Virus genome (UHGV): UHGV-0140152
Source: a virus
DNA: 19,401 bases
Reading direction: 5' to 3' (one strand)
Shown: one piece after another, positions 1,691-18,901 of the stretch
Position numbering within the stretch: position 1 is the stretch's first letter
Layout of the letters: each line of letters begins with the position of its first letter
Notes under the pieces: model-generated
Told to the model about the DNA's origin: nothing
Seen by the model: the letters and a program-made list of their open reading frames with translations, nothing else
The model's database searches: none
Made by a program: the position numbers and the translations under genes

Positions 1691-1802
1691 CAGAAACGGC
1701 TGGATTGCCTTCGGGGAACGGCTGGAGGCTTTCAGGGAGACGGTCGAGTTGCCTTTGTGGGTTTCGGGAAAAGGCTCGATGCCGGTTCAGGAACGGCGGC
1801 GT
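1691..1802. repeat. iteron-like array, 5 degenerate copies of GRAACGGC at about 22-bp spacing
   Basis: cagaaacggctgg / gggaacggctgg / gagacggtcg / gaaaaggctcg / ggaacggcgg. The same core recurs four times at 7971-8085. Confidence 0.55.
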
Positions 1803-2165: not shown

Positions 2166-2342
2166 ATGTACAGGCATCTGAATGTCAGTATCACCCTCGA
2201 TGACGTTATCCACTCTCAGGATGTAGCTGGTCGCGTGGTGACGCTCATCTCTGAAGGATACAGAGAAGGGATGTTTGATTTCCATATCGAGGACAACCCA
2301 ATGTCCGTCGCGTGGAACTGCACGACGTCAGAAACAAAGTGA
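2166..2342 (+). CDS. small hypothetical protein (58 aa, MYRHLNVSITLDDVIHSQ...)
   Basis: Not in the ORF track (too short). AAGGAG sits 7 nt upstream of ATG; the leader taacaccaacaagaaaacaa is shared with the gene at 7473; stop lies 10 nt before the next gene. Confidence 0.5.
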   Translation: MYRHLNVSITLDDVIHSQDVAGRVVTLISEGYREGMFDFHIEDNPMSVAWNCTTSETK

Positions 2343-2352
2343 GGGTGAATAG

Positions 2353-2571
2353 ATGATTAAGATGCCTGTGATGGTTGAGGTGTGGAACGTGGATTCCCTG
2401 GCCGAGTGCCTGGATGCAGTGGGGCCGGAGCTGTATCGCAAATTGTGGTCGTTCGTCCCGGCTGAAGGGGAATCACCCAAAGGGAAGGAGATCTGGCACC
2501 TGCTCAGTGAAGATGAACAGCGGGAGCTGGTGGACGCGGTACACATTGAGTTCCCGGACGACGAAGATTAA
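2353..2571 (+). CDS. small acidic hypothetical protein (72 aa)
   Basis: Track ORF; GAGGG RBS 7 nt upstream; acidic C-terminus EFPDDED; followed by a terminator. Confidence 0.6.
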   Translation: MIKMPVMVEVWNVDSLAECLDAVGPELYRKLWSFVPAEGESPKGKEIWHLLSEDEQRELVDAVHIEFPDDED

Positions 2572-2577
2572 GAGTGA

Positions 2578-2601
2578 GGCCACCAGCACGGTGGCTTTTT
2601 G
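2578..2601 (+). terminator. intrinsic terminator
   Basis: GCCACC agcac GGTGGC hairpin followed by TTTTT. Confidence 0.7.
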
Positions 2602-2710
2602 CTGTTTGCAACCTCCGGGGCAGCGCAGCGCCGTAACGCTATGCTTTGTAGCCTTTTTCTTACTGGTATTATTTACGCCATTGAGAAAACAAGTTGTTTA
2701 CGGAGTTGTG

Positions 2711-3025
2711 ATGAAAAAATCATTGGTTCTTGGTCTGGACAAAGACCAGAAGAGAAAAGAGAAGCCTGCACTGGTTGCTCAATTAACTTTGCTGGACATC
2801 GTTGCCAATGGAACCTCTATTCGTCTGTTCCGTGAAACAGCGGTGTCTTTCGATAAAAACACCTTTACTCGTTATGTAATGAATGTTCGTCGCCAGCGTG
2901 GAAAAGGCTGGGTGGCATTTCAAAGAATGTGGCCTGCACATCAGCTCGAGCTGGCTTTGATGGAAGTAAACCGCGTGGCCCAGCAAGAAATTCAGAGAGC
3001 ATCAGTGATGGCAACAGCCTGGTAA
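2711..3025 (+). CDS. hypothetical protein (104 aa, MKKSLVLGLDKDQKRKEK...)
   Basis: In-frame ATG inside track ORF 2375..3025, downstream of the 2578-2601 terminator; GGAG 5 nt upstream; AAACAAGTTGTTT palindrome at about 2686-2699. Confidence 0.6.
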   Translation: MKKSLVLGLDKDQKRKEKPALVAQLTLLDIVANGTSIRLFRETAVSFDKNTFTRYVMNVRRQRGKGWVAFQRMWPAHQLELALMEVNRVAQQEIQRASVMATAW

Positions 3026-3056
3026 TGTGCAAGTGGTAATTAGTCGACAGTACGAC

Positions 3057-3086
3057 AGCCCCGACGTCCTTACGGGGCTTTTTTGT
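3057..3086 (+). terminator. intrinsic terminator
   Basis: AGCCCCG ...CGGGGCT hairpin followed by TTTTTT. Confidence 0.75.
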
Positions 3087-3148
3087 ATTGTAAGCACATA
3101 CCTACGATCATAGAATAGAAAAATAACTAATACACTACGGAGAGTGAA

Positions 3149-3544
3149 ATGACCGTTAAACGCGAAAAACTGACAGTTGATGTTTACTATGCCTCTGAAA
3201 CCGCCGAAGGTAAGAATGTGGCAAAAATTACCGTTGTTACGTACAACACCGAAACTGGTGCCGAAGTACAGGCCAGTACGATCGTGCGTAAAGGTGATGC
3301 CTCCGGCGGCGAGTACGCGACTCAATACCAGTCCATTCTCGATGCAACTGACCCGCTGCTGCTGAAAATCGAGAACTACTTCCGCCAGGTTGATGAAGAG
3401 GTGTTTGAAACCATGATGAATATGGTTAATTCCGTATTCACCTCCAGCCTGAACACCCGCACTACCTGGATTGGTCAGTACGGTCTGCGTATTACCTCCG
3501 GCATTCCTGCTGACACCTTAATCCCTGAAAGCGTATTCGCTTAA
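3149..3544 (+). CDS. hypothetical protein (131 aa)
   Basis: Track ORF; GGAG RBS 7 nt upstream of ATG; own terminator downstream. Confidence 0.7.
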   Translation: MTVKREKLTVDVYYASETAEGKNVAKITVVTYNTETGAEVQASTIVRKGDASGGEYATQYQSILDATDPLLLKIENYFRQVDEEVFETMMNMVNSVFTSSLNTRTTWIGQYGLRITSGIPADTLIPESVFA

Positions 3545-3553
3545 TCCTCTTTA

Positions 3554-3582
3554 AATGGCGCGTAAACCTCGCCATTTTCTTA
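3554..3582 (+). terminator. intrinsic terminator
   Basis: AATGGCG cgtaaacct CGCCATT followed by TTCTT. Confidence 0.6.
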
Positions 3583-3661
3583 TACCCGATAATAATTTGT
3601 TTTCTACCTTATCTGATTTGTGAAAATGATTTCACTGAAGCAACTTAATAAGGAAAAAATC

Positions 3662-4036
3662 ATGGGACTTGATATCTACATCGAGACGCAGCCAAAAAAC
3701 GATCTGAATAACGATACATCCAGATGGCAGGTTGGCTACTTCCGCAAGTTCAATGCGCTTGTATCGTGGGTGGAGAATAACGTTGGTATGGTTGAGAACT
3801 GTGAACTTGTGGAGCTTAACCGTGAGCATTTGCTGAAGCTGAAAGCAGACCTGGATTGTCTCAATAAAGAAAATTGCAGTGAAATAATGCCCACAATGGA
3901 AGGATTCTTTTTCGGCAGTCAGGAGTACGACGACTTCTACTGGAGAGACGTGGATGAACTGAGAGAACTCACGGAACAGCTGATAGAGAATCACGATTTC
4001 GACAATAACAGACTGACGTTCTGCGCCTGGTGGTAA
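3662..4036 (+). CDS. hypothetical protein (124 aa, MGLDIYIETQPKND...)
   Basis: Track ORF 3620..4036; preferred start is the ATG at 3662, 7 nt after AAGGA. Preceded by the operator-like aataatttgttttct. Confidence 0.65.
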   Translation: MGLDIYIETQPKNDLNNDTSRWQVGYFRKFNALVSWVENNVGMVENCELVELNREHLLKLKADLDCLNKENCSEIMPTMEGFFFGSQEYDDFYWRDVDELRELTEQLIENHDFDNNRLTFCAWW

Positions 4037-4038
4037 AT

Positions 4039-4182
4039 ATGGGCGATTTCAAGAAAACCCTGAAGGAAAGAACCGAAATGGTCAGAAAGCAAAACGCCTC
4101 TTCTGTCATCAGATACGCAAGGCAGTTCAGCAAAAACAACAGACAGATTGAAGAGCAAATCAAATCAGTCATAGTCAGATAA
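4039..4182 (+). CDS. possible small basic protein (47 aa) coupled to the upstream gene
   Basis: ATG 2 nt after the upstream stop, open to TAA, followed immediately by a strong terminator. Weak RBS; not in the track. Confidence 0.25.
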   Translation: MGDFKKTLKERTEMVRKQNASSVIRYARQFSKNNRQIEEQIKSVIVR

Positions 4183-4187
4183 GAAAC

Positions 4188-4229
4188 AGCGCCAGAAAAG
4201 CCAACGGGAGCGATTCTGGCGCTTTTTTT
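4188..4229 (+). terminator. intrinsic terminator
   Basis: AGCGCCAGAA ...TTCTGGCGCT 10-bp stem followed by TTTTTTT. Confidence 0.8.
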
Positions 4230-4317
4230 GTTCTGGTGACAGGATTACTCCTGTCAGGGCTGTTTCTTTTGTTACAGACGCTATCATGAAGACAAAAAGA
4301 GAAGGAAGATCACTGAT

Positions 4318-4425
4318 AGGTCTGGGAGTTACTTCAGTTTTAAAAATGCCTGCTTCCGTATATATAAATAATAAGTAACTTAATAAATATATACGGAAGC
4401 AGGCACTGTTAAGACTCCAGAAGTG
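4318..4425. repeat. structured palindromic element, copy 1 (17-bp stem, conserved AT-rich 22-nt loop)
   Basis: CCTGCTTCCGTATATAT-aaataataagtaacttaataa-ATATATACGGAAGCAGG with flanking ggtctgggag. A near-identical copy lies at 19171-19267. Confidence 0.7.
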
Positions 4426-4656
4426 AGCAAAAATCAACCTAAAAAGACACTGAACTCACCAGAATAAACTTAACCAGCCAGTACAGGCGCTGAAGTCTTC
4501 CGTAGCAGGCATCAAAGGGAATTTCGTTAAGGTACTTCAGCATAGGGTGGATGGATATCAAACCGTATGTGTATTGCCTCTCGTTTGATGCCTCCTGAAG
4601 CACCTTTAAAAGTTTTTTAAAAGCGCTACAATGACTATCAGATAAGAGGAGGTTTT

Positions 4657-4908
4657 ATGAGCTATCAAATTCTGACGACGACAGCAGCCAGCATTACTGA
4701 GCTGAAAAGAAACCCTATGGGCACTGTAGCTGAAGGTGAGGGGGAGGCCGTCGCAATCCTGAACCGGAATGAACCCGCGTTTTACTGTGTCCCACCAGAA
4801 CTTTATGCCTACTATCGGGAACTCGCCGAGGACGCTGAACTTAACGCGATTGCAGATGAAAGAATGAAAGAACCGGACATTGTGAAGGTTAACCTGAATG
4901 ACCTATGA
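4657..4908 (+). CDS. stbD: type II antitoxin, Phd/YefM (StbD-like) family
   Basis: 83-aa protein MSYQILTTTAASITELKRNP... resembling StbD/Phd antitoxins; GAGGAGG RBS; overlaps the downstream RelE-like toxin gene. Confidence 0.8.
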   Translation: MSYQILTTTAASITELKRNPMGTVAEGEGEAVAILNRNEPAFYCVPPELYAYYRELAEDAELNAIADERMKEPDIVKVNLNDL

Positions 4909-5179
4909 GCTGGCATTTGAACGCAGGGCACTGAAAGAATGGCAGAAGCTCGGCCACACTGTTCGTGAACAATTCAAAAAGAAGCTGTCAGAGCGCCTGA
5001 AAAATCCACATGTCCCCGCAGCCAGGCTATATGGTCATACTGACCGTTACAAAATTAAGCTTCGCGCATCCGGTTACAGGCTCGTTTATCAGGTAATTGA
5101 TGAGAAGGTTGTTTTGCTTGTCATTGCTGTAGGAAAAAGGGAAAGCAGCGAAGTCTATCACACGGCTGATACTCGTTAG
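4898..5179 (+). CDS. stbE: type II toxin, RelE/StbE family mRNA interferase
   Basis: 93-aa protein with ...RALKEWQKLG..., ...YKIKLRASGYRLVYQVIDEKVV..., ...VGKRESSEVY..., closely matching E. coli RelE as I recall it. Classic coupled antitoxin-toxin arrangement. Confidence 0.85.
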   Translation: MTYELAFERRALKEWQKLGHTVREQFKKKLSERLKNPHVPAARLYGHTDRYKIKLRASGYRLVYQVIDEKVVLLVIAVGKRESSEVYHTADTR

Positions 5180-5204
5180 CAAAGTGCGCCTTATATCCTC
5201 GCCT

Positions 5205-5440
5205 GTTGACTAAATCTCATAATAACCTGAGGTCAATTTCTTCTGTTTGTGACCTCAGGTTAATTTCCTTTATTTATAACCTTAACTTATTAGGCTGCAT
5301 TTTATTCCGCGTCATCGCTTCATTATTTATGTATATGGCGACCTTATTTAATTACGCCCACCTGAACTTACTTCTTTTCCGCCTGTTTCATTCAGCGATA
5401 ATTAACGCATCGAAACGAAACTAAACGAAAGGAGTTAAAA
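5205..5440 (+). promoter_or_regulatory. cassette leader 1 (homologous to 6200-6342)
   Basis: 12-bp inverted repeats aacctgaggtca / tgacctcaggtt, conserved block cctgaacttacttcttttccgcctgtttcattcagcgat and a conserved RBS context. Confidence 0.55.
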
Positions 5441-6160
5441 ATGAGTGCGCGTCTTAAGAAGCTTATCAAAAAGCGTAAATCTCTTAAAGAACATGCAGAA
5501 TTGATAAATTTAATTGAAAAACGTTTTCCAGTCATTTCGGATATTGAGGACTTCTATTGGGTGGAGAAATGTAAAGTTTGGGATGGCATTGATGATGTAA
5601 AAGATGTGGATGATTTTGTCAGCAAGTACAACCCAGACATTAACTACAAACTAGCTGATGATTTTGCTGGCTCGTCTAAAGATGATCCGCTTCCTGATTG
5701 GTTTAACATTGATGATTATCCTAGTTGCATGTGTACCACCTACACCAACAAAGATTTTAGTAAAGCGTGGTTTGCTATTGCTTATGGCTGTTATTTCAAT
5801 AAGTCCGACGGAAGCAAAAGACCATATTTTCTCGCTGAAATAGACTTAACCAGCGGAGAGATTACAGTACACGAAAACCACAGGAATCTAATGAAGCTTG
5901 TTGATAGCGTTCGCGTACTGGATACAGACGCCCAGCAATTAACGAACAATGCATGGTTCGGACTTGATGGAGTAAAAGGGGGTATCGAACTGATAATGGG
6001 TCATCTTTTAAATGAATACTCGGACTGGTATCATCCGCCACACAATCCGCTTGAGTCATTTGACGATCCGCTTGAGCCATTTGACGATCCGCTGAAGGAC
6101 TACATCGATGAACCAATATATATGATGGAATCTTTTCAATTAGATATGATTCCAGCATGA
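5441..6160 (+). CDS. highly acidic hypothetical protein (239 aa); distant paralog of 8856..9503
   Basis: Track ORF; AAGGAG RBS. Shares ...DFSKAWF...FLAEIDLTSGEITV... and NPLESFDD with the minus-strand protein at 8856..9503. Confidence 0.75.
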   Translation: MSARLKKLIKKRKSLKEHAELINLIEKRFPVISDIEDFYWVEKCKVWDGIDDVKDVDDFVSKYNPDINYKLADDFAGSSKDDPLPDWFNIDDYPSCMCTTYTNKDFSKAWFAIAYGCYFNKSDGSKRPYFLAEIDLTSGEITVHENHRNLMKLVDSVRVLDTDAQQLTNNAWFGLDGVKGGIELIMGHLLNEYSDWYHPPHNPLESFDDPLEPFDDPLKDYIDEPIYMMESFQLDMIPA

Positions 6161-6165
6161 CAAAC

Positions 6166-6197
6166 GCCACCAGTTAACGCTGGTGGCTTCAAGTTTT
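6166..6197 (+). terminator. intrinsic terminator
   Basis: GCCACCAG ttaacg CTGGTGGC followed by TTCAAGTTTT. Confidence 0.65.
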
Positions 6198-6199
6198 GC

Positions 6200-6342
6200 T
6201 CTCATCACCTCAGGTCAAATTTCCTCGTTTGCAACCTCAGGTCAATTTAAGAATGATATCACCTGTATCCCTGAACTTACTTCTTTTCTGCCTGTTTCAT
6301 TCAGCGATGATTATTACATCGAAAACAAACGAGGAATTAAAA
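6200..6342 (+). promoter_or_regulatory. cassette leader 2 (homologous to 5205-5440)
   Basis: Two acctcaggtcaa repeats, conserved block cctgaacttacttcttttctgcctgtttcattcagcgat and GAGGA RBS. Confidence 0.55.
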
Positions 6343-7269
6343 ATGAAACCAGTATTTTTGGGGCGAATTGATATTAGTGAATTGTTTTCAGTTAGAGATG
6401 GGTTCCAATATGACTGTGATTGCCTTGAACTTAATGGTCTTGAACGTGAATACAGATTGGCTATTGTGAATGATGGTAAGAAGACATTTTCTGTCGAATG
6501 TTTTGAAAATACTTACTTTAAGCAGGTGTTGAGAATAAGACAGCATGTGGAGATGTCAATTCGGGAAAACATCAAAAATAAATGTGAGTTTCTTGTGGTT
6601 AAAAATGAAGCAGATGAAATAAACTTTGTTACGTTCACTGATAGTGGTCGATTGGCTATGCTGGAGCTATTTCAGCTGATCGTTTCTAATAACAGTATAA
6701 CAGAAGCCTTGAACAGTCTTTCAACTATAGTATCAAGAGAAAGAGAAAACACTGGCGCTTTAATTGTAGAGGAGCTAGATGGAATACTCGAGAAGATCAA
6801 GAATAAAGAGCTGATTATAGAATATGGCAAGGAAAGTAGGAAAAATAATTTACATTCAGCTTTTCACTCCCCATATGTTGAGCGTTTGAATGGTTTGGCT
6901 GCTTTTGTTAATTTGGACTTTAATAGATTTTTTAGTTCTTTTTTTACAGAGTGTGGGCTTGTTATTGTTGAGGTAAATAATGAGAACGATGTCCCCAAAA
7001 TTATAGTACATTCGATGCCTGATATATCTCTCAATGAAATTGGGGACAAACTGGAGAATTTATACGATGTAAAAAGCATGGAAGAACTCATAGAGTATCT
7101 GGCCATAAATGCGGTAGCCATGGCTGATAATGATGTGTTTGGGGTTGGTGCACTGCATGAAGGTTTTCTTGACGCCCTTGAGCTTTACGGGACTGCTCGC
7201 TGGTTTCTGTCAGGATTAGTGGATGATGCACCTTTACTCATCAATACAGATTATTTTTATTCCAGTTGA
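6343..7269 (+). CDS. hypothetical protein (308 aa)
   Basis: In-frame ATG within track ORF 6196..7269, placed after the conserved leader and GAGGA RBS. No family recognised. Confidence 0.7.
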   Translation: MKPVFLGRIDISELFSVRDGFQYDCDCLELNGLEREYRLAIVNDGKKTFSVECFENTYFKQVLRIRQHVEMSIRENIKNKCEFLVVKNEADEINFVTFTDSGRLAMLELFQLIVSNNSITEALNSLSTIVSRERENTGALIVEELDGILEKIKNKELIIEYGKESRKNNLHSAFHSPYVERLNGLAAFVNLDFNRFFSSFFTECGLVIVEVNNENDVPKIIVHSMPDISLNEIGDKLENLYDVKSMEELIEYLAINAVAMADNDVFGVGALHEGFLDALELYGTARWFLSGLVDDAPLLINTDYFYSS

Positions 7270-7275
7270 AAACAA

Positions 7276-7300
7276 GGCCACCACTGCTGGTGGCCTTAAA
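7276..7300 (+). terminator. putative terminator hairpin
   Basis: GGCCACCA ctgc TGGTGGCC hairpin; the T-tract is weak. Confidence 0.45.
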
Positions 7301-7472
7301 TGACCATCCTGTCTCCCGCAGGCTAAAAACACCAACCTCTTACCTCCAGGCAACCGACAAACCCACCTGTTCCCGTCCGGCTACCGCAACTTTCCACTTT
7401 GACGCCTTATTCGTACAACCATAATTAACACCAACAAGAGAACAATTTGTTATTTAGAATAAGGAATCAATC

Positions 7473-7955
7473 ATGAATTTTATCGCTACTGTAAACGCAC
7501 CCGCACATGGCAATATCGCTGTAACGTTCTCTGACACTGAAAAACGAGTACTTGGTGCATGGCGCGACAATGAGACGGTAGAACTGTCAGCACAAGAAAA
7601 ATGCATTATTGCACGCGACATCATTGGCAATCGTCGTTACTCGCGGGTATTTGAGAAAGCGTATGTGGTAAATTCTGGGTTCGGAACGTTCGTCTTTCCG
7701 GTGCGCTCCGGGCGATTCTGCCAGTCCAAGCTGATTGAGTTCGCTACGCAGATTTCTGTCTGGATTAAAACTCAATCGTCGTTCAAATTTTCCGACGATG
7801 AAGCAGTATCGCAGGGGATGCGGATCGCCAACAATGCAATTAAATGCAAAAACATTACGTATACCGCTGGCGTTGACACATGGAGACTGTTTTGCGCTAA
7901 CTTTATGCTGAATGTATACGCAAGCAACCGCATCCACATCCTTGATGGCGTGTAA
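7473..7955 (+). CDS. hypothetical protein (160 aa)
   Basis: Track ORF; AAGGAA RBS; leader shares taacaccaacaagagaacaatttgtt with the 2166 gene. Confidence 0.7.
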   Translation: MNFIATVNAPAHGNIAVTFSDTEKRVLGAWRDNETVELSAQEKCIIARDIIGNRRYSRVFEKAYVVNSGFGTFVFPVRSGRFCQSKLIEFATQISVWIKTQSSFKFSDDEAVSQGMRIANNAIKCKNITYTAGVDTWRLFCANFMLNVYASNRIHILDGV

Positions 7956-7970
7956 CTGAGAAGAGGGCCA

Positions 7971-8085
7971 GAAACGGCCCTTTCTCTATAGCCACCAGCT
8001 GCCGCAGGGAAATTTTCAGAAACGGCTAGGAACGCATTCATGAGCCGACGGGAAACGGCCAGGATTTTTTCGGGAAACGGCTACA
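7971..8085. repeat. iteron-like array, 4 copies of GAAACGGC
   Basis: GAAACGGC at about 7973, 8021, 8054 and 8076; the same core as the 1691-1802 array. The first copy sits in the loop of a GGGCC...GGCCC hairpin. Confidence 0.55.
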
Positions 8086-8207
8086 TTTGCCTTTATGTAG
8101 AAAAAACATCGGGAAGCTGGTGGAATCCAATCAGCGGTTGTCGGACAGGTGAGCGGGGAAAATCATTATGACTCTCGTCACCTGAGACATCCAGATTTCT
8201 TTCATAG

Positions 8208-8260
8208 CGTAATCACATACGTGATTAAGTGGTGTGATTATGTGAAAAATCACGCGCACA
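8208..8260. repeat. cluster of GTGATT/AATCAC inverted repeats
   Basis: TAATCAC-atac-GTGATTA and GTGATT-atgtgaaa-AATCAC within 50 bp, in a convergent intergenic region. Confidence 0.5.
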
Positions 8261-8429
8261 TAATACGCGAGCGGATACGGAACAAAACAAAATGCAGATT
8301 CGCGCCGACAAATAAACGCGGATCATAAAGCAAGACTAAAAGCCAATGATTAACTATGCGCTATAGCGCAATATAACGCATTTTAAGCGCGTTAATGTGT
8401 TAAGTAATGGGTATGTACTGGCAAGGATA

Positions 8430-8570
8430 TAAAAGCGCGTCCATGGCGTTATTTTGGCGCTTATTTTTATGTTGTTGGAGTGAGTTAAAGACAATAAAAA
8501 AGCGCCATCATTGGCGCGTTATGGTGGGAGTATTGGAAACGAAAAAAGCGCCCATAGTGGGCGCTCGATT
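8430..8570. repeat. tandem GC-stem hairpins of the GCGCC(C)A-N-TGGGCGC family
   Basis: gcgccatcattggcgc and gcgcccatagtgggcgc, each flanked by A/T runs; plausibly bidirectional terminators. Confidence 0.5.
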
Positions 8571-8801
8571 TTATTTATGTAAACTGATTTCAAATCCCAT
8601 TTCTACAAACGCTTTTAACATTAAAAATATATCAGCGTCGTTCACGTCTGCTTTTTTCCGCTCCTGGTCGCTCAATAAGTCAATTTTGCGCGTCGTTTCG
8701 TCTATAAGCTCGACTGCGCGCCCAGCGTAACCAGCGATCCCAGCGATGCGATTAACATAATATTCATTATGGACGTTAACGCCAGCGATTAAAATAATCA
8801 T
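8571..8801 (-). CDS. small hypothetical protein (76 aa)
   Basis: Track ORF; AAGGAG RBS on the minus strand immediately after the 8824-8841 hairpin. Confidence 0.6.
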   Translation of the reverse strand: MIILIAGVNVHNEYYVNRIAGIAGYAGRAVELIDETTRKIDLLSDQERKKADVNDADIFLMLKAFVEMGFEISLHK

Positions 8802-8823
8802 GCTTTAAAAACTCCTTTAAATG

Positions 8824-8841
8824 CGCCCATATTTGGGCGCA
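8824..8841. repeat. hairpin GCGCCCATATTTGGGCGC (identical copy at 9577-9594)
   Basis: Perfect 7-bp stem between the stop of 8856..9503 and the RBS of 8571..8801. Confidence 0.6.
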
Positions 8842-8855
8842 TGATTTATATGGTA

Positions 8856-9503
8856 TTATTCAAAATATGGAAATGCAGAATTTTCTTCATGATCTAATAC
8901 GAAAGTTTTTTCATTAATATAATTTGGCGCATTATCGCCAAATGATTCTAGTGGTTCGAGATGATTGAAATCATCTTTTTTAATAAAGTAGGATATATAA
9001 TAGATACCATCGTGTAAATCAGCCAAACCACACCAAATATAATAGCCAATAGGATAACATGCAGGACCACGATTCACATAAACTGTAATTTTTCCGCTTA
9101 ATAAATCCATCTCAGCAAAAAAAGCTAATCCGCTTTTTTCCTCTTCTCCTTCTTTTTCTCTGATTTTTCCGTTTAGAACGTCAGCACTTTGAATAAACCA
9201 CGCTCTAGTAAAATCCGCGTTAACATATGTAGCAAATTCGCCAAAGTCGCAATTTTTGCGCAAGTTGGGTAAATCCTCGATTAAATCGAGATTGATATTT
9301 AATTGCGCTGTATTTTCAGCAATAATTAGCTCTGCTTTCGTTAATTCCGTGTTATTAAATTCTGGCTTTTTTTCTGGTAATTTGTGCACTACTTCTTTGA
9401 TTTTGTCAGCGAATTTAATTTTTGATTTAATCAATGGAAGACGAGATTCAGCCATCTCTACGAAAGCAGAGATAAAAGATTCGCAAACAGTAAAAGTTTT
9501 CAT
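8856..9503 (-). CDS. hypothetical protein (215 aa); distant paralog of 5441..6160
   Basis: Track ORF; GAGGAA RBS. Shares ...DFTRAWF...FFAEMDLLSGKITV... and EPLESFGD with 5441..6160. Confidence 0.75.
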   Translation of the reverse strand: MKTFTVCESFISAFVEMAESRLPLIKSKIKFADKIKEVVHKLPEKKPEFNNTELTKAELIIAENTAQLNINLDLIEDLPNLRKNCDFGEFATYVNADFTRAWFIQSADVLNGKIREKEGEEEKSGLAFFAEMDLLSGKITVYVNRGPACYPIGYYIWCGLADLHDGIYYISYFIKKDDFNHLEPLESFGDNAPNYINEKTFVLDHEENSAFPYFE

Positions 9504-9536
9504 ATTAAATTCCTCAATTAAAATCTGAACCAGATG

Positions 9537-9594
9537 AATAAAGCTAATATTAGCTTTATTCCGAGTTTTATCTCATGCGCCCATATTTGGGCGC
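9537..9594. repeat. perfect 24-bp palindrome plus second copy of the GCGCCCATATTTGGGCGC hairpin
   Basis: AATAAAGCTAATATTAGCTTTATT (9537-9560) and gcgcccatatttgggcgc (9577-9594), between the genes at 9608..10258 and 8856..9503. Confidence 0.6.
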
Positions 9595-9607
9595 TTGATT
9601 CCATTAA

Positions 9608-10258
9608 TTACGCTTTAAAAGCATCAGCTAGATAATTGTAGAAATCTTTTTTAATGAAGCGATATTGTTGAGTACCAGCTTTGGCGCTTCCCATTCCTTT
9701 GACTTTCTCAACAAGTCCGAGACGTTCGCAAAGATTGATTAGCTGGTTAGCTTGAGTATAGCCAGCGTCTAAGCGTAAATCATTTGCTCGCTTAACTTCA
9801 TTCATTAAATCAAAAACAGCGCCATTAGTAAAAACTTCTACTTCGTCTTTGATCATGTGAACAAGTGCAAACACGCGTGATCCGCTCATATCGTCTTTGG
9901 AGTACTCGCATTTACCAGCTTTGATAGATTTAACCAGATAAACTAATTTTTCCAGTGAGTAACTGTTAGTCATCGCTTCGCGGAAAAACACTTCTGGTGC
10001 TTGTTTGCTTGCTTTAATCGCAAAGTAAAACACAGCAGACAATTTTTCGTCGTTAACAGCAGACAAAATGTTATTAGAGAAATATTTTAACTTTGTAGAA
10101 GCAGCGCGAAGATTATCTTTATCGTTTTTGGTCAGCGCGCCAGTGCTATTAAGAAGTTCATTCTTTTGCCCCAAGTCGTTAGCTTTTGCACCCAGCTCAG
10201 CAGCAACAATATTAGCAGCTTCAACGATGTTTTTTTTAGATAATATAATGTTGGTCAT
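9608..10258 (-). CDS. hypothetical protein (216 aa)
   Basis: Track ORF; AGGA RBS about 9 nt upstream on the minus strand. No family recognised. Confidence 0.7.
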   Translation of the reverse strand: MTNIILSKKNIVEAANIVAAELGAKANDLGQKNELLNSTGALTKNDKDNLRAASTKLKYFSNNILSAVNDEKLSAVFYFAIKASKQAPEVFFREAMTNSYSLEKLVYLVKSIKAGKCEYSKDDMSGSRVFALVHMIKDEVEVFTNGAVFDLMNEVKRANDLRLDAGYTQANQLINLCERLGLVEKVKGMGSAKAGTQQYRFIKKDFYNYLADAFKA

Positions 10259-10512
10259 GATTTCAATCCTTAGATCAAATTAGAAAATTTATTTCGTTCT
10301 ATCGTTAGCGTGTTCGCTTTCGACGAGTTCAATTATCGATACGCAAAAAAAGATTGCAAGTGTTTTTTCTTAGTTTTTTACAGGGACGAAAGTCCTAGAA
10401 ATAAAAGCGAGATCGTCGAAGGTGTTCCCTAAATAAATAATCTACTCCGGCTTTTAACCTTATATATTTATACGGAGTGGAATAGGGGGTATTAAATGAA
10501 TGGCGTGTAAAA

Positions 10513-10538
10513 TAATAACCGGACTTAGCCGGTTATTA
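10513..10538 (-). terminator. putative terminator of the minus-strand block
   Basis: TAATAACCGG acttag CCGGTTATTA 10-bp stem just past the stop of 10550..11113, with a T-rich run following on the minus strand. Confidence 0.5.
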
Positions 10539-10549
10539 CCCTTATAGAT

Positions 10550-11113
10550 TTAAAATGGAAGGATTCGGTCAACCCAATCGAAGAGAACAATCATTCTTGC
10601 ATGTTCCCTGATTTTCATCGTCACCTGACAAGCATCAACGCCTAACGACACTCCCTCTATTTCACGGCCATCCGCCATGTAGACCCTTATAGATCTGCCG
10701 TTTTGATGAGCTTTGCGACATATCTTAAAAAAGTCACGACGTGATGGCTGGTTGTTCACGTAGTCAGGATGTACGGTAAGCCTGTCCGCAAAGTCCCCAT
10801 CTACTTCTGGAGGTATAATCGTTTCTATAGAGCTAACTTTCCCAAGAGGAAGACGAACTCGACGCTCTTTGCTTCTTGGAACGGGTGATAGATCAAGTTT
10901 GTTGCGTGATGGTAGTGTTCCCTGTACATACATGTTGAATACCTGTCCATCTTCCATCGTGACTTTTACAGGAACAGAGTGTGCCCTCCAGAACATCAAG
11001 GTATGTTCCACATTAGAATAGTCTCGCGGCCATACTTCAGCCGGTATGCCGTATGTAATATCTTTCGTCGTCATATCATTATAAAGTGGTTGGCAATATG
11101 TCCATTGTACCAT
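10550..11113 (-). CDS. hypothetical protein (187 aa; possibly 174 aa from an internal ATG at about 11074)
   Basis: Track ORF. The 11113 start overlaps the lipoprotein gene by 35 nt; the alternative ATG lies a few nt after the lipoprotein stop. No clear RBS for either. Confidence 0.55.
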   Translation of the reverse strand: MVQWTYCQPLYNDMTTKDITYGIPAEVWPRDYSNVEHTLMFWRAHSVPVKVTMEDGQVFNMYVQGTLPSRNKLDLSPVPRSKERRVRLPLGKVSSIETIIPPEVDGDFADRLTVHPDYVNNQPSRRDFFKICRKAHQNGRSIRVYMADGREIEGVSLGVDACQVTMKIREHARMIVLFDWVDRILPF

Positions 11114-11498
11114 CCCAGGTAGTGAAAACCCGATATGTTTTCGAGTCGCCCTGCTTTAGCTTTATTTCTCGTTCCATCCTGGAGGGGTTAAATGCGCAAA
11201 GACCTGAACTTTCAATTGATGTCCCAACGATCCACTCTCCTTCGTTAAGGTAGAAAGTTGCTTTTTCACCAGGTTCTAGCTTTGCAACCGTTTCTCCATT
11301 GATGAAAATGGAAGCGTTACATGCAGAACCAACCAGCCCTTTGTCTCGAACTATTGTTAAACTAGACTCATGTGGTGTTTGATATTTAAATATTCTGCTT
11401 TGAGGTGCATCCTTTGCCTTTGAAACAGATATAGACGAAGACGAACATCCAATTAGTGATGTGGTTAGTGTTAGAATAATTAGGTTTGTTACTTTCAT
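11079..11498 (-). CDS. putative lipoprotein (139 aa)
   Basis: N-terminus MKVTNLIILTLTTSLIGCSSS has a hydrophobic core and an L-I-G-C lipobox, indicating a signal peptidase II substrate. Confidence 0.7.
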   Translation of the reverse strand: MKVTNLIILTLTTSLIGCSSSSISVSKAKDAPQSRIFKYQTPHESSLTIVRDKGLVGSACNASIFINGETVAKLEPGEKATFYLNEGEWIVGTSIESSGLCAFNPSRMEREIKLKQGDSKTYRVFTTWDGTMDILPTTL

Positions 11499-11514
11499 AT
11501 TTGTCTGACTATGA

Positions 11515-12066
11515 TTAATAGTTAACTTGGGTTCTGTTGTAAATGTCTATTAAGAAATCGTCCTGCTTTATGTTTTTACAGGTTTTGTCGAAGGTTAATT
11601 CACCTGATAATATGCAGGCGTTGTATTTTTCGATAAAAATATTTAATGCCTGCCAATTTTTGAAAAGAAAAGAGAAACCATATGACGACTCGCTGCCGTT
11701 TATCAACCCTCGTGCGCTGGGATATTTGTATAAATTTGAATGTAGCTCTAATTTACCAGGGGCAACGTCGCCACAGGAATTCATAATGACGAACATTTTG
11801 GATATATCAAAAGGATAAAAAACTATGCCGCAATTTGTCCTGTTGCCTTTAATATCCTTCACGTAAATATAGTGCTCGTAACAATCTTTACGCGAGGCAT
11901 TTAACCTGTATTGTATTAGTTTGTGCTCTCCTTTTTGAGAGGGTATTAGGTATCGTGTACGCTTGTCTAAGCAGGATTTCGTCTTTGTACGGTATTGCGA
12001 CATACTGCTCTTTATTTCCGCTGCACTTAGAAAGTTCTCATTAAAAGGCAAATGTCCCATTTGCAC
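11515..12066 (-). CDS. hypothetical protein (183 aa) homologous to the N-terminal domain of the HNH protein at 12312..13292
   Basis: GGAGG RBS 5 nt upstream. ...YGFSFLFKNWQALNIFIEKYNACILSGEL aligns with ...LGYSFAFKNRLSIEMFLITLIDYIDSGKI of the HNH protein. No nuclease motif. Confidence 0.7.
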   Translation of the reverse strand: MQMGHLPFNENFLSAAEIKSSMSQYRTKTKSCLDKRTRYLIPSQKGEHKLIQYRLNASRKDCYEHYIYVKDIKGNRTNCGIVFYPFDISKMFVIMNSCGDVAPGKLELHSNLYKYPSARGLINGSESSYGFSFLFKNWQALNIFIEKYNACILSGELTFDKTCKNIKQDDFLIDIYNRTQVNY

Positions 12067-12152
12067 CTCCGGTTCTTAAGCATAGATAAGCCTACAAAAT
12101 TAATTCAGTCGATCAAGATCTTTTTTCAGCCGGAAGTTTATGTATCAAGAAG

Positions 12153-12168
12153 TGTGATCAAGTTCACA
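12153..12168. promoter_or_regulatory. perfect CRP-consensus-like palindrome TGTGA-N6-TCACA, about 95 bp upstream of 11515..12066
   Basis: tgtgatcaagttcaca inside a roughly 110-bp segment homologous to 13293-13415. Confidence 0.45.
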
Positions 12169-12311
12169 TACTGCTTTGCCAGAAGAATACCATATGCAAA
12201 ACATTCTATTGCTGTTAAAATTTAATCGTTCAGACATAAGGAAGCCCTATACCCTCGACAAATCTTTCTGGTATTGTCGAGGGCATGTTTCACATTTATA
12301 GGTAGATAGCG

Positions 12312-13292
12312 TTAATTGGTGTTTTTGTTCTTCTCTTTTTTGCTAATTTCATCACATGTAAGGTTCATTATGTCTATGTTTTCTTGCTTTTGAAGGTTGC
12401 CGACAATTTTTTTGCGCAATTCATAAAATCGCTCGCGTGGTATAGCTTCCTTGTTGCCGTTGATGTGAAGTATTGCGTGACAGCTAGGGCAGACGGCAAT
12501 CAGATCTGTTTTTGGGTTCACGCTTCGTGCATCTTCGCCTTGTGAAAGTGGGACGATGTGGTGAGCGTGTAGCAGCGTTTTCGTTTCTTTGCCGTCAATT
12601 TCCTTGCCGTATATTTCCGACATCGTTCTGCAACATAATTGACACCTGTAGTCTGCGTTTGCCAGAACGTCATTCCTTAACCCGGATACGCGGCTACGAT
12701 GTTGCGACTGGATTAATCTTGTTTCGCCCTCTATATATTCCTCAACTTCTTCTTTCTGGAGGTCGTAGCTGATTTCTTCTTGAGTCGGATGGACTTTTTT
12801 GTATAGAAGATCAAGATATTTAATGTCCTCTGTTATATATTTGGAATCCTCTAGCGAGGATATTTTTCCTGAGTCTATGTAGTCAATTAATGTAATAAGG
12901 AACATCTCTATCGATAGCCTGTTTTTAAAGGCAAACGAATATCCAAGATGTCTTCTATCTCCTGAATGAATTGGCGTCCAATGAGATTTCTCAATTTTTT
13001 GTGGTGTTACGCAGATACCTTTGCCGATATTGTTTACATGTTCCAATAATTGATAAACAGAATTAATGCGGTAAGCATGTGTTACTAAAGAATTTATTTT
13101 TCTTGTGCCGACGGAGGATTTTGTCATAACAACATGATGAGATATTTGTTTTTTTAAAATCAAATCATACGATGTAGCTTTTTGGTTTTCGCCTTTGTCG
13201 GTTTTTTTTATTAAATTTAGTTTTTTATTAGAGGCTATTTTCTCTATTTCTTCTCTAACTTCTTTTATCGTCATGTAAGTTTCTTTTGTCAT
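12312..13292 (-). CDS. HNH endonuclease, McrA-like C-terminal domain with an unrecognised N-terminal domain (326 aa)
   Basis: C-terminus YRCQLCC...LLHAHHIVPLSQGEDARSVNPKTDLIAVCPSCHAILH is an HNH motif with two Cys pairs, arranged like McrA. AT-rich gene. Confidence 0.8.
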   Translation of the reverse strand: MTKETYMTIKEVREEIEKIASNKKLNLIKKTDKGENQKATSYDLILKKQISHHVVMTKSSVGTRKINSLVTHAYRINSVYQLLEHVNNIGKGICVTPQKIEKSHWTPIHSGDRRHLGYSFAFKNRLSIEMFLITLIDYIDSGKISSLEDSKYITEDIKYLDLLYKKVHPTQEEISYDLQKEEVEEYIEGETRLIQSQHRSRVSGLRNDVLANADYRCQLCCRTMSEIYGKEIDGKETKTLLHAHHIVPLSQGEDARSVNPKTDLIAVCPSCHAILHINGNKEAIPRERFYELRKKIVGNLQKQENIDIMNLTCDEISKKEKNKNTN

Positions 13293-13390
13293 TATAATTC
13301 GACCTACTGGAATATCTTGATTTAAGAGGCTACAAATATCGTTCAGCCAATCAAGAAATTTTTTCAGCCGGAGGTTTGTACTTCAAAAAA

Positions 13391-13406
13391 TGTGATGAAT
13401 GTCACA
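13391..13406. promoter_or_regulatory. perfect CRP-consensus-like palindrome TGTGA-N6-TCACA, about 105 bp upstream of the HNH gene
   Basis: tgtgatgaatgtcaca within the duplicated promoter segment; on the minus strand it is followed by TTTTTT. Confidence 0.45.
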
Positions 13407-13431
13407 TGCAGGTGCGCTCATACACCTGCAT
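13404..13431 (-). terminator. hairpin after the stop of 13440..14006; likely terminator of the helicase operon
   Basis: CATGCAGGTG cgctcata CACCTGCATG, a perfect 10-bp stem, 9 nt past the stop codon. Confidence 0.5.
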
Positions 13432-13439
13432 GTAGACTA

Positions 13440-14006
13440 TTAATCATTCAATAATCTATATTTGCTTTTGATTAAATCTTCACCTTTTCTGGTGAACACA
13501 AAACCAAATTGCGATTTTTTGTTCAGTCGAAGAACTCTGTTATCCAGTGCATCGGTTGACGGAATTAGTGTCTGATCATCTATCCAATTTAGTAGCGTAA
13601 GAAAGTTCAGCAACCTCAACGTTGTTGTGCGAAGCTCTTTCGATATATTTTCAATGCTGGCAATTCGTCTTTCTTTTTTCTTTGGCGTTTCGATTAACTT
13701 CGCTTGAGAGGTGGACAATGAATAGATATTTTCATTGTCCTCATCAAACAACAGATGTTGGGTAAGTTTGCTAAAAAAACCTCGTGCGGATTCGCTTGAT
13801 AACACTCCCTCTTTATTCATATCATTAGTTATTCTGTACAAGAGTGGACCGTACTTCATTTCAGGATAACGTTGATAAAAGTTAAGTAATTCAAAAGCAG
13901 CATTAGCACCAACAAGAAAATCAGAAGGATCGCTGACCTTCCAGAAAGAATGATTTTTCTTAGCGCCTGTGGTGTCAACAAATGATAATTCTTTTAAACA
14001 ACTCAT
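13440..14006 (-). CDS. hypothetical protein (189 aa, MSCLKELSFVDTTGAKK...)
   Basis: Track ORF 13440..14039; preferred start is the ATG at 14006, 6 nt after AAGGAG. No family recognised. Confidence 0.7.
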   Translation of the reverse strand: MSCLKELSFVDTTGAKKNHSFWKVSDPSDFLVGANAAFELLNFYQRYPEMKYGPLLYRITNDMNKEGVLSSESARGFFSKLTQHLLFDEDNENIYSLSTSQAKLIETPKKKERRIASIENISKELRTTTLRLLNFLTLLNWIDDQTLIPSTDALDNRVLRLNKKSQFGFVFTRKGEDLIKSKYRLLND

Positions 14007-14071
14007 GATGTACTCCTTTCTAACAAGTGAGCACATCATAGAATTGGTGGATAGGGGGTAAATATGGAACG

Positions 14072-14350
14072 TTACGGCAACCTGCTCAGTATTTCCTCCA
14101 GATCTTCTTTGGTCATATTAGAGTTCTCATAAATACGCATAATTTTCTCACGAGTCTTAGCAGAGACTCCAACGGCAGATGAAACTTTGTCAAATTCAGC
14201 CATTGTCATTGTCTCCAGAATGGCATTGATAACTTCAGCCTTAGACATTTTGATATTTTTTTCTTTTAGTTTCACTTGAAACTTTCCAAGTTTGTCATTG
14301 GCCTTATCCGACAATGACACCTGACAATAAGTTGTTTTCTTTTCGCTCAT
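14072..14350 (-). CDS. small putative ribbon-helix-helix DNA-binding protein (92 aa)
   Basis: N-terminal strand-helix-helix pattern (TTYCQVSLSDKANDKLGKF...MSKAEVINAILETM); start is 2 nt after the helicase stop, suggesting translational coupling. Confidence 0.55.
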   Translation of the reverse strand: MSEKKTTYCQVSLSDKANDKLGKFQVKLKEKNIKMSKAEVINAILETMTMAEFDKVSSAVGVSAKTREKIMRIYENSNMTKEDLEEILSRLP

Positions 14351-14352
14351 AA

Positions 14353-15912
14353 CTAATCTCGTTTCAGAACTCCAAAATCGAATGTGCCATCAATTGGCAA
14401 TACACCTTCTGCAAAGCCAGGTGTGGTGTCGATGATGTGTTTTCGCTCATAAGAGTGAGACAACAGGTATTTGTTGCTAATGTCAATGAAATCAGTGATA
14501 AAACACACGTTTGCCTGATTTTTTTTTGCTCGTAAGCCACGACCGACACGCTGTCTCATTTCAACTTCTGCTTTCCCACCACCAGCAAGAATGACCGCGC
14601 CCACGCTTGGCACATCAACACCGACATCCAGAATAGTCGAGCCTATTAAAACATCTATTTCGCCAGACGCTAAACTGTTCAGCTTTGCTTGCCTTGTCGT
14701 CTGGTTCGATTCCCCATAGATGAAGTCAACTCTAAGGCCGGACTCTTTCATCATCTCCATCAGGATTTGCCCGTGGCGTTTAAGACGAACCAGAGTCATG
14801 CAGTTGAGAGAATGTTGCTTATAGAGCAATGCTTCTCGTACTATGGCCTCGTTTCGTCCCAAATTATACACGATCCCCAACTGATAAGCTTTTTGGTAGG
14901 CAGTGCTCATACCTACCCTAAAATTGAGGTGTTTGTTGGCAAGTTCTGCCTTGATTCTGACCTCGTCTGGTTTGTAGGCAACTTTATGATAAAGGAAATA
15001 TGGCTTTGCCAGAATACCTCTATCAATCAGGTATTTTTCTGTAACTTTAATTTCAATTCGCCCGGCCACAGCCATCAGACGCATGTTGGCTTCTGTAGAA
15101 GCCTTCATGAACGGCGTTGCCGTAAGCGCCAGGCGATAGTCTGCGTTCGTACATAATCTGGCAATGTCATAGAAATTAGAGCCTGAAGACTCATGCGCCT
15201 CTTCCAGAATAAGAAGAGAGACACTTGAAAGGAAGCGCTTCACTAACTCCTGACGTTTGAGGTGGTAGCTCTTCTTATCTGGTGTTGCATCGCGTGGTGG
15301 TTCTTCGAGGAAACTTGCAATAGTTTGAACTGTAGCGACGTTGATATGTCGTGATACCTGAAACTCACCCGAGCCAATGATTCCAACCTTTTGGTCTTTT
15401 AACCACGGTTCGCCATTTTTGGCGCGGTAGTCGATGGATCTCTGGAAGTTTTCGGCCATCTGAAACATCAGAACAGATCGGGTTGTTAAAAATAATGTCA
15501 TTCGACCGATACGTGCAGCTGCTTTGCAGGCAACGTTAGATTTCCCACCACCAGTAGCGATCTGCGCAATCATCATTCCCTCGCGAACCAGTGTTTCCAC
15601 AGTCTGATCCTGATACGCATAATCAGGATTGTATGGGAATGGGTTAACCGCCGGATTTGGCTTTCCAAGCGCCGGGGCTTTGTCTTTGCGGATATGAACA
15701 CATTTGATGCCCGCCTTGTTCAAGTTCGCCGCTACAGGCTTGGCAAAGCCAGCAGGGAACGAGTTTTTACTCCAGTGGAACATCGTGCTTGTGCCCTTCC
15801 AGTCGCCAGTGTCGACTTCGTAGCTCAACATCTGTTGCACCAGTTGCTTTACCTTGTCATCTGCGCCAGAAATAAGCGCATTTACTGCGTTAGATACAAT
15901 CCGAACAGTCAT
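14353..15912 (-). CDS. SF2 DEAD/DEAH-box helicase (519 aa)
   Basis: Walker A ATGGGKS, motif II LILEEAH (DEAH variant), motif III LTATP, motif VI QRVGRGLR. About 110-aa N-terminal extension of unknown function. Confidence 0.85.
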   Translation of the reverse strand: MTVRIVSNAVNALISGADDKVKQLVQQMLSYEVDTGDWKGTSTMFHWSKNSFPAGFAKPVAANLNKAGIKCVHIRKDKAPALGKPNPAVNPFPYNPDYAYQDQTVETLVREGMMIAQIATGGGKSNVACKAAARIGRMTLFLTTRSVLMFQMAENFQRSIDYRAKNGEPWLKDQKVGIIGSGEFQVSRHINVATVQTIASFLEEPPRDATPDKKSYHLKRQELVKRFLSSVSLLILEEAHESSGSNFYDIARLCTNADYRLALTATPFMKASTEANMRLMAVAGRIEIKVTEKYLIDRGILAKPYFLYHKVAYKPDEVRIKAELANKHLNFRVGMSTAYQKAYQLGIVYNLGRNEAIVREALLYKQHSLNCMTLVRLKRHGQILMEMMKESGLRVDFIYGESNQTTRQAKLNSLASGEIDVLIGSTILDVGVDVPSVGAVILAGGGKAEVEMRQRVGRGLRAKKNQANVCFITDFIDISNKYLLSHSYERKHIIDTTPGFAEGVLPIDGTFDFGVLKRD

Positions 15913-18892: not shown

Positions 18893-18901
18893 GGATTTGC
18901 C

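Follow-up and report, generated by a model that had tools for sequence, protein, structure and literature searches.

Paired arrays of phased direct repeats at a convergent intergenic gap of SSU5-like phage-plasmids: a candidate protein-bound cis-acting site

The gap and its genomic setting

The virus genome UHGV-0140152, a stretch of 19,401 nucleotides here called the window, derives from an Escherichia phage-plasmid that belongs to the SSU5/pHCM2/pMT1 group. This study concerns a 615-bp gap (7956-8570) between the stop codon of a plus-strand gene (7473-7955, 160 aa, phrog_1641) and that of a minus-strand gene (8571-8801, 76 aa, phrog_1585), and in particular the array of direct repeats (iterons) at its left end and a second array of the same repeat kilobases upstream. 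The segment 7400-8900 matches the phages PhiR41_1 and Cyrano at 95-97%, and it is also matched by several hundred plasmids, mostly of about 100-115 kb, from Escherichia, Klebsiella, Yersinia, Salmonella, Enterobacter, Citrobacter and Cronobacter. Nearly all genes of PhiR41_1 lie on the plus strand, the main exception being the block equivalent to window positions 8571-15912, so that the gap is the meeting point of long rightward transcription and a leftward operon. The order of 160-aa gene, gap and small minus-strand genes is maintained in pHCM2, pMT1, SSU5 and relatives from Klebsiella, Enterobacter, Cronobacter and Salmonella, and the two most divergent relatives found (L204 and L205) share it. 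The gap measures roughly 580-660 bp throughout the family and is almost devoid of annotation; no mention of this region, its repeats or a lytic origin was found in the literature on SSU5, pHCM2, Cyrano and PhiR41_1.

The original prediction, made from the window alone, had described the gap as lacking a credible open reading frame (ORF) and as densely packed with protein-binding-like sites, and both statements are borne out. The ORFs overlapping the gap are limited to 7772-8041 on the minus strand and 8407-8730 on the plus strand, neither of which is conserved, and indels of 1-2 nt between relatives fall within its best-conserved blocks. The density of repeats and hairpins is above chance, and the sites are conserved. 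The comparative alignment that had been proposed was made with 12 sequences first and then with 24 dereplicated relatives spanning Escherichia, Salmonella, Yersinia, Klebsiella, Enterobacter and Cronobacter; it indicates strong purifying selection on the iteron part. Three zones are distinguished within the gap, namely a highly conserved left zone (7960-8103), a variable and partly mosaic middle (8104-8400) and a conserved right zone containing terminators (8400-8570).

The iteron array of the gap

The repeat in the left zone is an asymmetric unit of about 16-18 bp, TTTTC[AG]GGRAACGGCT, that occurs three times on the plus strand: unit A, AATTTTCAGAAACGGCTAG (8012-8030); unit B, GCCGACGGGAAACGGCCAGG (8044-8063), which lies 33 bp past A (34 bp in other lineages); and unit C, TTTTTCGGGAAACGGCTACA (8066-8085), 22 bp past B. 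This array, termed cluster 2, is preceded on the same strand by the near-invariant 21-mer CCACCAGCTGCCGCAGGGAAA (7990-8011; mean column conservation 0.93 in the 24 relatives), which holds two dyads, CAGCTG and CTGCnGCAG, as well as GGGAAAT, a degenerate unit situated 11 bp ahead of unit A. It is followed by the conserved plus-strand block TTTGCCTTTATGTAGAAA (8086-8103), and a similar sequence, TTGCCTTT, follows a unit of the upstream array. Four GAAACGGC iterons had been proposed originally, and this string is present at 7971, 8019, 8052 and 8074; its five copies in the whole window compare with 0.57 expected, and 1 of 200 shuffles contained as many as five. The copies at 8019, 8052 and 8074 belong to the conserved units, whereas the one at 7971 belongs to a terminator, GGGCC-agaaac-GGCCC, of which it forms the loop and 3' stem; in relatives beyond the E. 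coli lineage its sequence is GGAAACGCC.

Conservation across the 24 relatives reaches 0.90 in unit A, where the AACGG core is invariant, and 0.96 in both B and C, as compared with 0.73 in the A-B spacer and 0.71-0.78 in the middle of the gap. The unit cores are thus invariant against a spacer divergence of about 27%, and they are near-invariant from Yersinia to Klebsiella. The motif is constant even where the neighbouring 160-aa protein has diverged to 51% identity, and no motif change that could be exploited for motif/protein co-variation was present even in the most divergent relatives. The gap array has the three or more phased direct repeats of 17-22 bp that are looked for in an iteron origin.

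A partner array upstream

A second array, cluster 1, is located on the plus strand at 1668-1800 and consists of 5-6 units (GGGGAAAGGCT, CAGAAACGGCT, GGGGAACGGCT, GGGAGACGGTC, GGGAAAAGGCT and CAGGAACGGCG), with unit spacings of 22, 22, 22, 31 and 22 bp in the window. The iteron core shared by both arrays is GGGAAACGG. In the complete, 108-kb PhiR41_1 there are exactly two clusters of the repeat, both on the plus strand and 3.5 kb apart, where 0.125 would be expected from shuffles; its cluster 1 occupies positions 31638-31745 of L014. A pattern search of IMG/VR for the repeat recovered 65 contigs, four of which gave matches unlike the gap: those in L044 and L072 are copies of cluster 1, and those in L045 and L064 are chance pairs. 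Wherever the sequence extended far enough upstream, at 27 of 27 loci, cluster 1 was present 1.4-6.2 kb ahead of cluster 2, with 3-7 units in the same orientation, and the divergent L204 and L205 also keep the core motif in both arrays. The gap array is the distal member of an array pair, and two conserved clusters of one iteron kilobases apart correspond to the arrangement known from phage P4. A scan of genome contigs for these iterons beside a Rep gene on other replicons yielded, among the matches listed, mostly chance occurrences in unrelated GC-rich genomes, together with two Kluyvera contigs.

The spacings in cluster 2 (11, 33 or 34, and 22 bp) and in cluster 1 (22, 22, 22, 31, 22 and 40 bp) are near whole helical turns, which, judged from the sequence, is a signature of protein-binding direct repeats.

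The DNA upstream of cluster 1 has a compositional peculiarity of its own. In three lineages it contains a tract of 700-900 nt with 65-80% A+C on the plus strand (about 700-1500 in the window, 1200-2100 in L204, and on the reverse strand in L044), with a GC skew of about -0.45, an AT skew of up to +0.5 and no convincing ORF; lineages agree in the composition of this tract but not in its sequence. Leaders that are likewise rich in A+C, but shorter, are found ahead of the 160-aa gene (about 7290-7470) and of the two island genes in L044.

Terminators at the gap edges

Both edges of the gap are formed by GC-rich hairpins with U-runs that follow a stop codon. The terminator of the plus-strand gene (7958-7986, plus strand) reads GAGAAGAGGGCC-agaaac-GGCCCTTTCTC and continues into a U-rich tail; the hairpin folds at -17.7 kcal/mol (z -4.3), and its stem shows a compensatory change among relatives (GGGCC/GGCCC versus GGGGC/GCCCC). 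The minus-strand operon has two such structures. T3 (8540-8566, minus strand), GAGCGCCCActaTGGGCGCUU followed by UUUUCG, lies directly past the stop codon of gene 8571-8801, and its hairpin (8546-8566) folds at -15.5 kcal/mol (z -4.9) with U6 next on the minus strand; this U-run is invariant whereas the plus-strand tail is unconserved, and the loop is flipped in two relatives. T2 (8494-8519, minus strand), GCGCCAatgaTGGCGC followed by UUUUUU, contains a hairpin of -10.7 kcal/mol (8500-8519) with six U next on the minus strand, and across relatives it combines an invariant stem with a freely varying loop. A further minus-strand hairpin, T1 (8430-8466), is weak in the window (z about -0.8 to -1.0) and in most relatives takes the form AAACGCG-N9-CGCGTTT, a 7-bp stem followed by TTAT on the minus strand, which gives most relatives three terminators for this operon. 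In total, 8 terminator-like sites were counted in the gap as compared with 2.0 +/- 1.6 in shuffles.

The structures at 7958-7986, T2 and T3 are ordinary intrinsic terminators of the two converging units. The three tandem hairpins that had been noted at 8430-8570 are therefore present, with one of them weak, but they are intrinsic terminators of the minus-strand operon and not hairpins of an origin of replication or transfer. The rrnB T1-T2 pair exemplifies tandem Rho-independent terminators at convergent operon ends; 8494-8566 and, weakly, 8430-8466 resemble it as serial GC hairpins with U-runs on the minus strand, and 7958-7986 does the same job on the plus strand. No difference from rrnB T1-T2 is apparent for these parts, which explain the gap edges only.

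A family of hairpins of the form GCGCC(C)A-loop-T(G)GGCGC recurs at 8502, 8548, 8823 and 9577, between the last genes of the minus-strand operon. U-runs are found only in its T2 and T3 members (8502 and 8548), and the others resemble intercistronic stabiliser or processing hairpins.

It could be argued that the gap is a terminator cluster and nothing else, the repeats being duplication remnants, or conserved by linkage, without binding or replication activity. The terminators at both gap ends, the recurrence of the GCGCC(C)A..T(G)GGCGC hairpin between the last minus-strand genes and the mosaic, poorly conserved middle agree with this explanation. However, the terminators cover only about 120 of the 615 bp, while the length of the gap is held near 580-660 bp, and the contrast between invariant cores and diverged spacers, together with a second array at every locus that could be inspected and two clusters genome-wide, makes a simple terminator cluster insufficient. 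The explanation that had been named in advance as the refuting case leaves the invariant phased repeats and the second array unaccounted for, and is considered quite improbable.

The variable middle and the right zone

The segment 8104-8262 is a lineage-specific mosaic, a replacement when compared with pTB212 from E. coli and with the other family members, GTGATTATGTGAA being its only part common to the family. It contains four GTGATT/AATCAC hexamers in 43 bp (8211-8253), arranged as TAATCAC-atac-GTGATTA and GTGATT-N8-AATCAC, and this grouping is the sole such cluster in the 108-kb relative. The ATTATGTG/CACATAAT dyad (8237-8264) and a consensus DnaA box (8241-8249) lie in the same segment. 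The ATCAC/GTGAT dyad differs in form between lineages, being TAATCAC-N4-GTGATTA in the window, GTGATT-N19-AATCAC in pTB212 and AGATCAC-N10-GTGATCT in the most divergent relative. Further to the right are the palindromes TGCGCTATAGCGCA (8357-8370) and TAACGC-N9-GCGTTA (8375-8395). The GTGATT/AATCAC elements and these two palindromes had been listed in the original prediction and are present as described; the GTGATT and GCGCTATAGCGC palindromes are mostly lineage-specific, and neither TGCGCTATAGCGCA nor TAACGC-N9-GCGTTA is conserved as a palindrome.

The interval 8357-8395 also holds a degenerate 10-bp tandem repeat, TATAACGCAA x1.9 (8362-8380). A 10-bp tandem repeat of similar sequence, ACGCGCTAAA x3.3, is found in pHCM2 (L003, 1306-1338), and the non-alignable middle of L204, the most divergent relative, contains a related 8-bp unit, GCTAAATG x6.8 (7732-7801; x4.4 as a 16-bp unit). 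Tandem repeats of 8-10 bp thus recur in the stretch ahead of the terminators while differing between lineages. Both they and the dyads may represent additional binding sites, with a specificity that changes from lineage to lineage. The right zone begins with a family-conserved 15-mer, GTAATGGGTATGTAC (8404-8418), recognised from column conservation in the alignment.

The cargo island between the arrays

The island enclosed by the two arrays (1800-7955 in the window) varies from 1.4 to 6.2 kb among relatives and consists of a conserved small gene (2711-3025, 104 aa), variable cargo and the conserved 160-aa gene. The cargo of the window comprises a Phd/ParE toxin-antitoxin pair (4657-5179) and two low-GC ORFs without a family match (5441-6160 and 6196-7269). 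That of relatives includes GmrSD and HsdM defence genes, which in the Klebsiella relative L205 are situated just upstream of cluster 1.

This layout invites a regulatory interpretation, in which the arrays are a transcriptional boundary or operator arrays and a regulator controls the island by roadblock, looping silencing or activation, the dyads of the middle being operators. The arrays bracket an island of small genes, of Phd/ParE and, in relatives, of defence genes; cluster 1 precedes the first genes of the island and cluster 2 comes just after the last, and all units are in the orientation of plus-strand transcription. The ATCAC-dyad middle is swapped between lineages in the manner of immunity or operator modules, and repressor-like genes are near, namely an FljA-like gene (10550-11113) and SSU5_116. 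On the other hand, no sigma-70-like promoter was found within the gap or beside either array, and there is no plus-strand gene downstream of cluster 2 to be regulated. The motif is invariant while the candidate regulators and the island are variable, and operators of dimeric repressors are usually dyads rather than asymmetric direct repeats spaced by 22 bp. A role of this kind is possible, though we would not expect it.

RNA-level readings

The repeats might alternatively act at the RNA level, as sites for an RNA-binding protein in a leader, a trailer or a non-coding RNA (a sponge or attenuator) whose ends are set by the terminators. All units of both clusters lie on the transcribed plus strand, GGA/GGGAA occurs within several of them, and the inner 445 nt of the gap (7986-8430) fold better than shuffles, with z of -2.55 on the plus strand and -4.53 on the minus strand. 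In addition, a protein of the FljA family is encoded 2 kb away, and FljA is a post-transcriptional repressor of flagellin mRNA. Binding of the repeat as RNA by this FljA-like protein was considered, on the strength of a possible resemblance to the fliC leader. Against this, no promoter was found, a strong terminator stands immediately ahead of cluster 2, and neither of the located intergenic small RNAs (sRNAs) of pMT1 from a Y. pestis survey maps to the gap. The helical-turn spacing suits DNA better, even though tandem duplication alone could yield it.

Structural comparison points in the same direction. RNAalifold of the left block on both strands detected compensatory change only in the terminator hairpin and no covariation-supported helix around the units. 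Rfam 15 gave no match in the whole window at gathering score, and permissive searches of 7900-8650 and 600-2700 gave nothing meaningful, the best score being 23 bits against a threshold of 56 and driven by a terminator. An RNA-level function appears unlikely overall.

One specific candidate, a structured RNA in the left block, was rejected on the absent covariation and on the behaviour of the long CCACCAGC/GCTGGTGG stem that could enclose the units: pMT1 and SSU5 show no compensating changes in this stem, and pHCM2 lacks it through a deletion.

Replication origins and the replication genes

The plasmid replicon of these elements is typed as IncFIB. In PhiR41_1, a repA-type gene (IncFIB/RepB-type) is flanked by 13 iterons, ACCGCTGACAGCATA, in two sets, a layout like incC/incA of P1, and this plasmid-mode replicon occupies L016 3918-5584 (103.9-105.6 kb of PhiR41_1). 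The gap was considered as the plasmid oriR and rejected: the RepA iterons ACCGCTGACAGCATA are unrelated to its units and, on the circular map of PhiR41_1, are about 38 kb distant.

An origin of replication had been among the first proposals for the gap. This proposal fails for the plasmid origin and for the canonical hallmarks, whereas its iteron-array part holds. Searches of the gap for DnaA boxes, integration host factor (IHF) sites, GATC clusters, the 13-mer of a DNA unwinding element (DUE), and Fis, CRP and LexA sites gave no conserved pattern. A single GATC is present, and the AT-rich windows of the region are the terminator T-runs and the next gene. The search for DnaA boxes that had been recommended returned one box, the one at 8241-8249, in the lineage-specific segment only. 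No recognisable Rep gene adjoins the array, and neither protein families nor the PDB gave a match for the flanking proteins; the model of the 160-aa protein is confident (pLDDT 88.6) without a significant structural neighbour.

The genome encodes gp32-like, DnaB-like, DnaG-like, Pol III alpha, SbcC-like and UvsW-like proteins, and the replication and recombination genes are located at L015 46496-47524 and 26070-28673, at L014 1-1917 and at 14353-15912 of the window. No P4-type iteron-binding primase-helicase was found among ten PhiR41_1 proteins scanned against Pfam. The DnaG-like primase (393 aa) and the DnaB-like helicase (446 aa) are separate proteins, neither with a Pfam DNA-binding domain. 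A phage-mode origin is unannotated in the genome, and no paper describing one was found.

The gp32-like single-stranded DNA-binding protein, DnaB-like helicase, DnaG-like primase, SbcC/Rad50-like ATPase and the UvsW annotated in Cyrano resemble the replication and recombination set of phage T4. Such a set raises the possibility of R-loop or recombination-primed replication in phage mode.

Partition, transfer, packaging and recombination

The gap had also been suggested as a parS-like site and as the target of the two ParB-like proteins encoded 8 kb away, at 15977-16675 and 16642-17343. Nothing ties these proteins to the repeats. They consist of a ParB_N domain only and score 43-45 bits, below the partition-ParB cut-off of TIGR00180 (58.45), and in a defence library they are matched best by a type II methyltransferase, in its N-terminal part; as far as their sequences indicate, the pair resembles the N-terminal domain of ParB-methyltransferase fusions. 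The gap contains neither a 16-bp palindromic parS nor P1-type boxA/boxB with an IHF site, and its repeats are asymmetric and direct. No full-length ParB with an adjacent ParA was found, and no ParA-type ATPase lies beside either array. PhiR41_1 annotates a separate parA gene elsewhere, and pMT1 carries a P1-type parABS.

A centromere-like site for partition or plasmid pairing, bound by the ParB_N proteins or by another centromere-binding protein, has the attraction that these proteins are conserved and syntenic in the family and that type Ib/II centromeres (parC1/parC2 of pB171, parC of R1 and parH of TP228) are also phased direct-repeat arrays, sometimes in two clusters flanking genes. The known centromeres differ in adjoining a parA or parM operon and in having periods of 6-11 bp, and no such operon is found beside the arrays described here. 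The single-domain, methyltransferase-like character of the ParB_N proteins, the missing parS, boxA/boxB and ParA, and the constancy of the arrays across a family in which PhiR41_1 has its annotated parA elsewhere make a centromere improbable.

The genes from 15977 to 19168 form a conserved plus-strand cluster of five, just upstream of the structural genes, that is unlike a partition system. It encodes the two ParB_N-only proteins, an ABC-type ATPase with weak matches to mad3/mad8 of MADS, a 296-aa protein and an 88-aa protein resembling a winged helix-turn-helix (18902-19168). The 296-aa protein is phrog_886, and its homologue in Cyrano is annotated as a fusion of an ABC-type ATPase with an acetyltransferase domain.

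Origins of transfer (oriT), packaging sites (pac/cos) and sites of recombination or dimer resolution were further proposals, which the dense repeats and dyads and the tyrosine integrase encoded in the genome might seem to favour. Transfer is unlikely, as typing gives 757 of the 784 related plasmids as non-mobilizable, and the window ORFs scanned showed no relaxase domain. Packaging finds no support, since no public phage record of the group starts or ends at the gap; the block of structural and packaging genes begins about 10 kb downstream, and it is there that the linear Cyrano record ends. As for site-specific recombination, the integrase gene of PhiR41_1 is about 51 kb away and no dif/cer-like core was seen on inspection. 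This group of functions is accordingly regarded as the least credible of all.

Comparison with known systems

Three replication systems are close in layout. In phage P4, the short type I iteron, to which the alpha protein binds, is present in both ori and crr. The arrays described here likewise are two non-coding clusters of the same repeat, kilobases apart at a flexible distance, in a phage-plasmid. They differ from P4 in that no alpha-type primase-helicase was found, the primase-like and DnaB-like functions being separate, and the repeat sequence is unrelated.

The P1 replicon is composed of incC iterons, repA and incA iterons, and F, pSC101, R6K and RK2 are other iteron plasmids. Asymmetric repeats of about 17-22 bp, helical phasing at 21-22 bp, two sets flanking genes and conserved cores with free spacers are common to these replicons and to the present arrays. 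The incC/incA-type layout of this genome is located elsewhere, however, with the 13 copies of ACCGCTGACAGCATA around repA, while at the arrays neither a Rep gene nor an AT-rich DUE nor an IHF site can be recognised, and the sole DnaA box is unconserved.

Bacillus phage SPP1 has repeated boxes bound by G38P at two distant loci, oriL and oriR. It resembles the present case as a phage with its own helicase and primase in which two separate repeat clusters serve one binding protein. In SPP1, by contrast, one of the clusters is contained in the initiator gene and AT-rich DNA is found next to each of them, which is not seen here.

Neighbouring genes

The minus-strand gene at 10550-11113 encodes a full-length homologue of FljA, the phase-1 flagellin repressor (PF03614, E 1e-70), and is conserved in the family, including the divergent relatives. 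It may be a moron that silences host flagellin or a regulator of the phage-plasmid itself. At 12312-13292, also on the minus strand, a 326-aa ORF joins an N-terminal part weakly like the neighbour's phrog_31250 to an HNH endonuclease domain. As PhiR41_1 and Cyrano annotate different, smaller genes at this place, the ORF may be an insertion of the homing-endonuclease type.

Proposed function and implications

The sequence pattern makes it likely that the gap combines a protein-bound DNA repeat array with terminators. In the fuller interpretation, which is the best explanation at hand and is offered tentatively, the gap would be a composite cis-acting DNA site insulated from transcription. According to this proposal, a sequence-specific protein encoded by the phage-plasmid would bind the units, all on one face of the helix, and the bound protein would pair the two arrays through looping or handcuffing. 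The arrays would then act either as an origin themselves (auxiliary or phage-mode) or as a site that enhances or controls one, similar to ori/crr of P4 or incC/incA of P1, and the flanking terminators would shield the nucleoprotein complex from transcription. A role linked specifically to replication and independent of the RepA origin is the favoured guess among the roles considered, but a doubtful one.

Several observations weigh against the composite site and its link to replication. No protein binding the iteron units was found. The interval 7990-8459 contains no 40-bp window at 72% A+T that could be an AT-rich unwinding element, no IHF consensus is present in the gap even with one mismatch, and no DnaA box is conserved beside the array, the single consensus box being unconserved. 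With T4-like replication genes, the phage might initiate by R-loop or recombination and need no iterons. A 63-kb deletion derivative from E. albertii has retained the RepB-type gene along with the gap region and hence cannot inform on autonomy. The sRNAs sR082 and sR083 of pMT1, from the Y. pestis RNA-seq survey, map near ymt and not to the gap, and the uniform direction of the units along plus-strand transcription would also fit an RNA motif or a transcriptional roadblock.

No earlier description of this conserved system of two iteron arrays appears to exist. In its widest form, the proposal is of a superfamily-wide, RepA-independent system with the invariant core GGGAAACGGCT that might be the long-sought lytic origin or enhancer, or a looping boundary of the cargo hotspot, with the gap as its distal half; this possibility is speculative. 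SSU5-like phage-plasmids include pMT1 of Yersinia pestis and pHCM2 of Salmonella Typhi and are common in clinical Klebsiella and E. coli, and resistance genes have been reported on some phage-plasmids. Their plasmid-mode replicon (IncFIB repA) is already known, whereas no description of the start of phage-mode replication, or of what organises the variable cargo region, was found in the literature. The array pair provides a concrete and easily mutated cis-element that brackets the cargo island, and even if its role is only regulatory, it still marks the borders of the main accessory-gene hotspot of the family.

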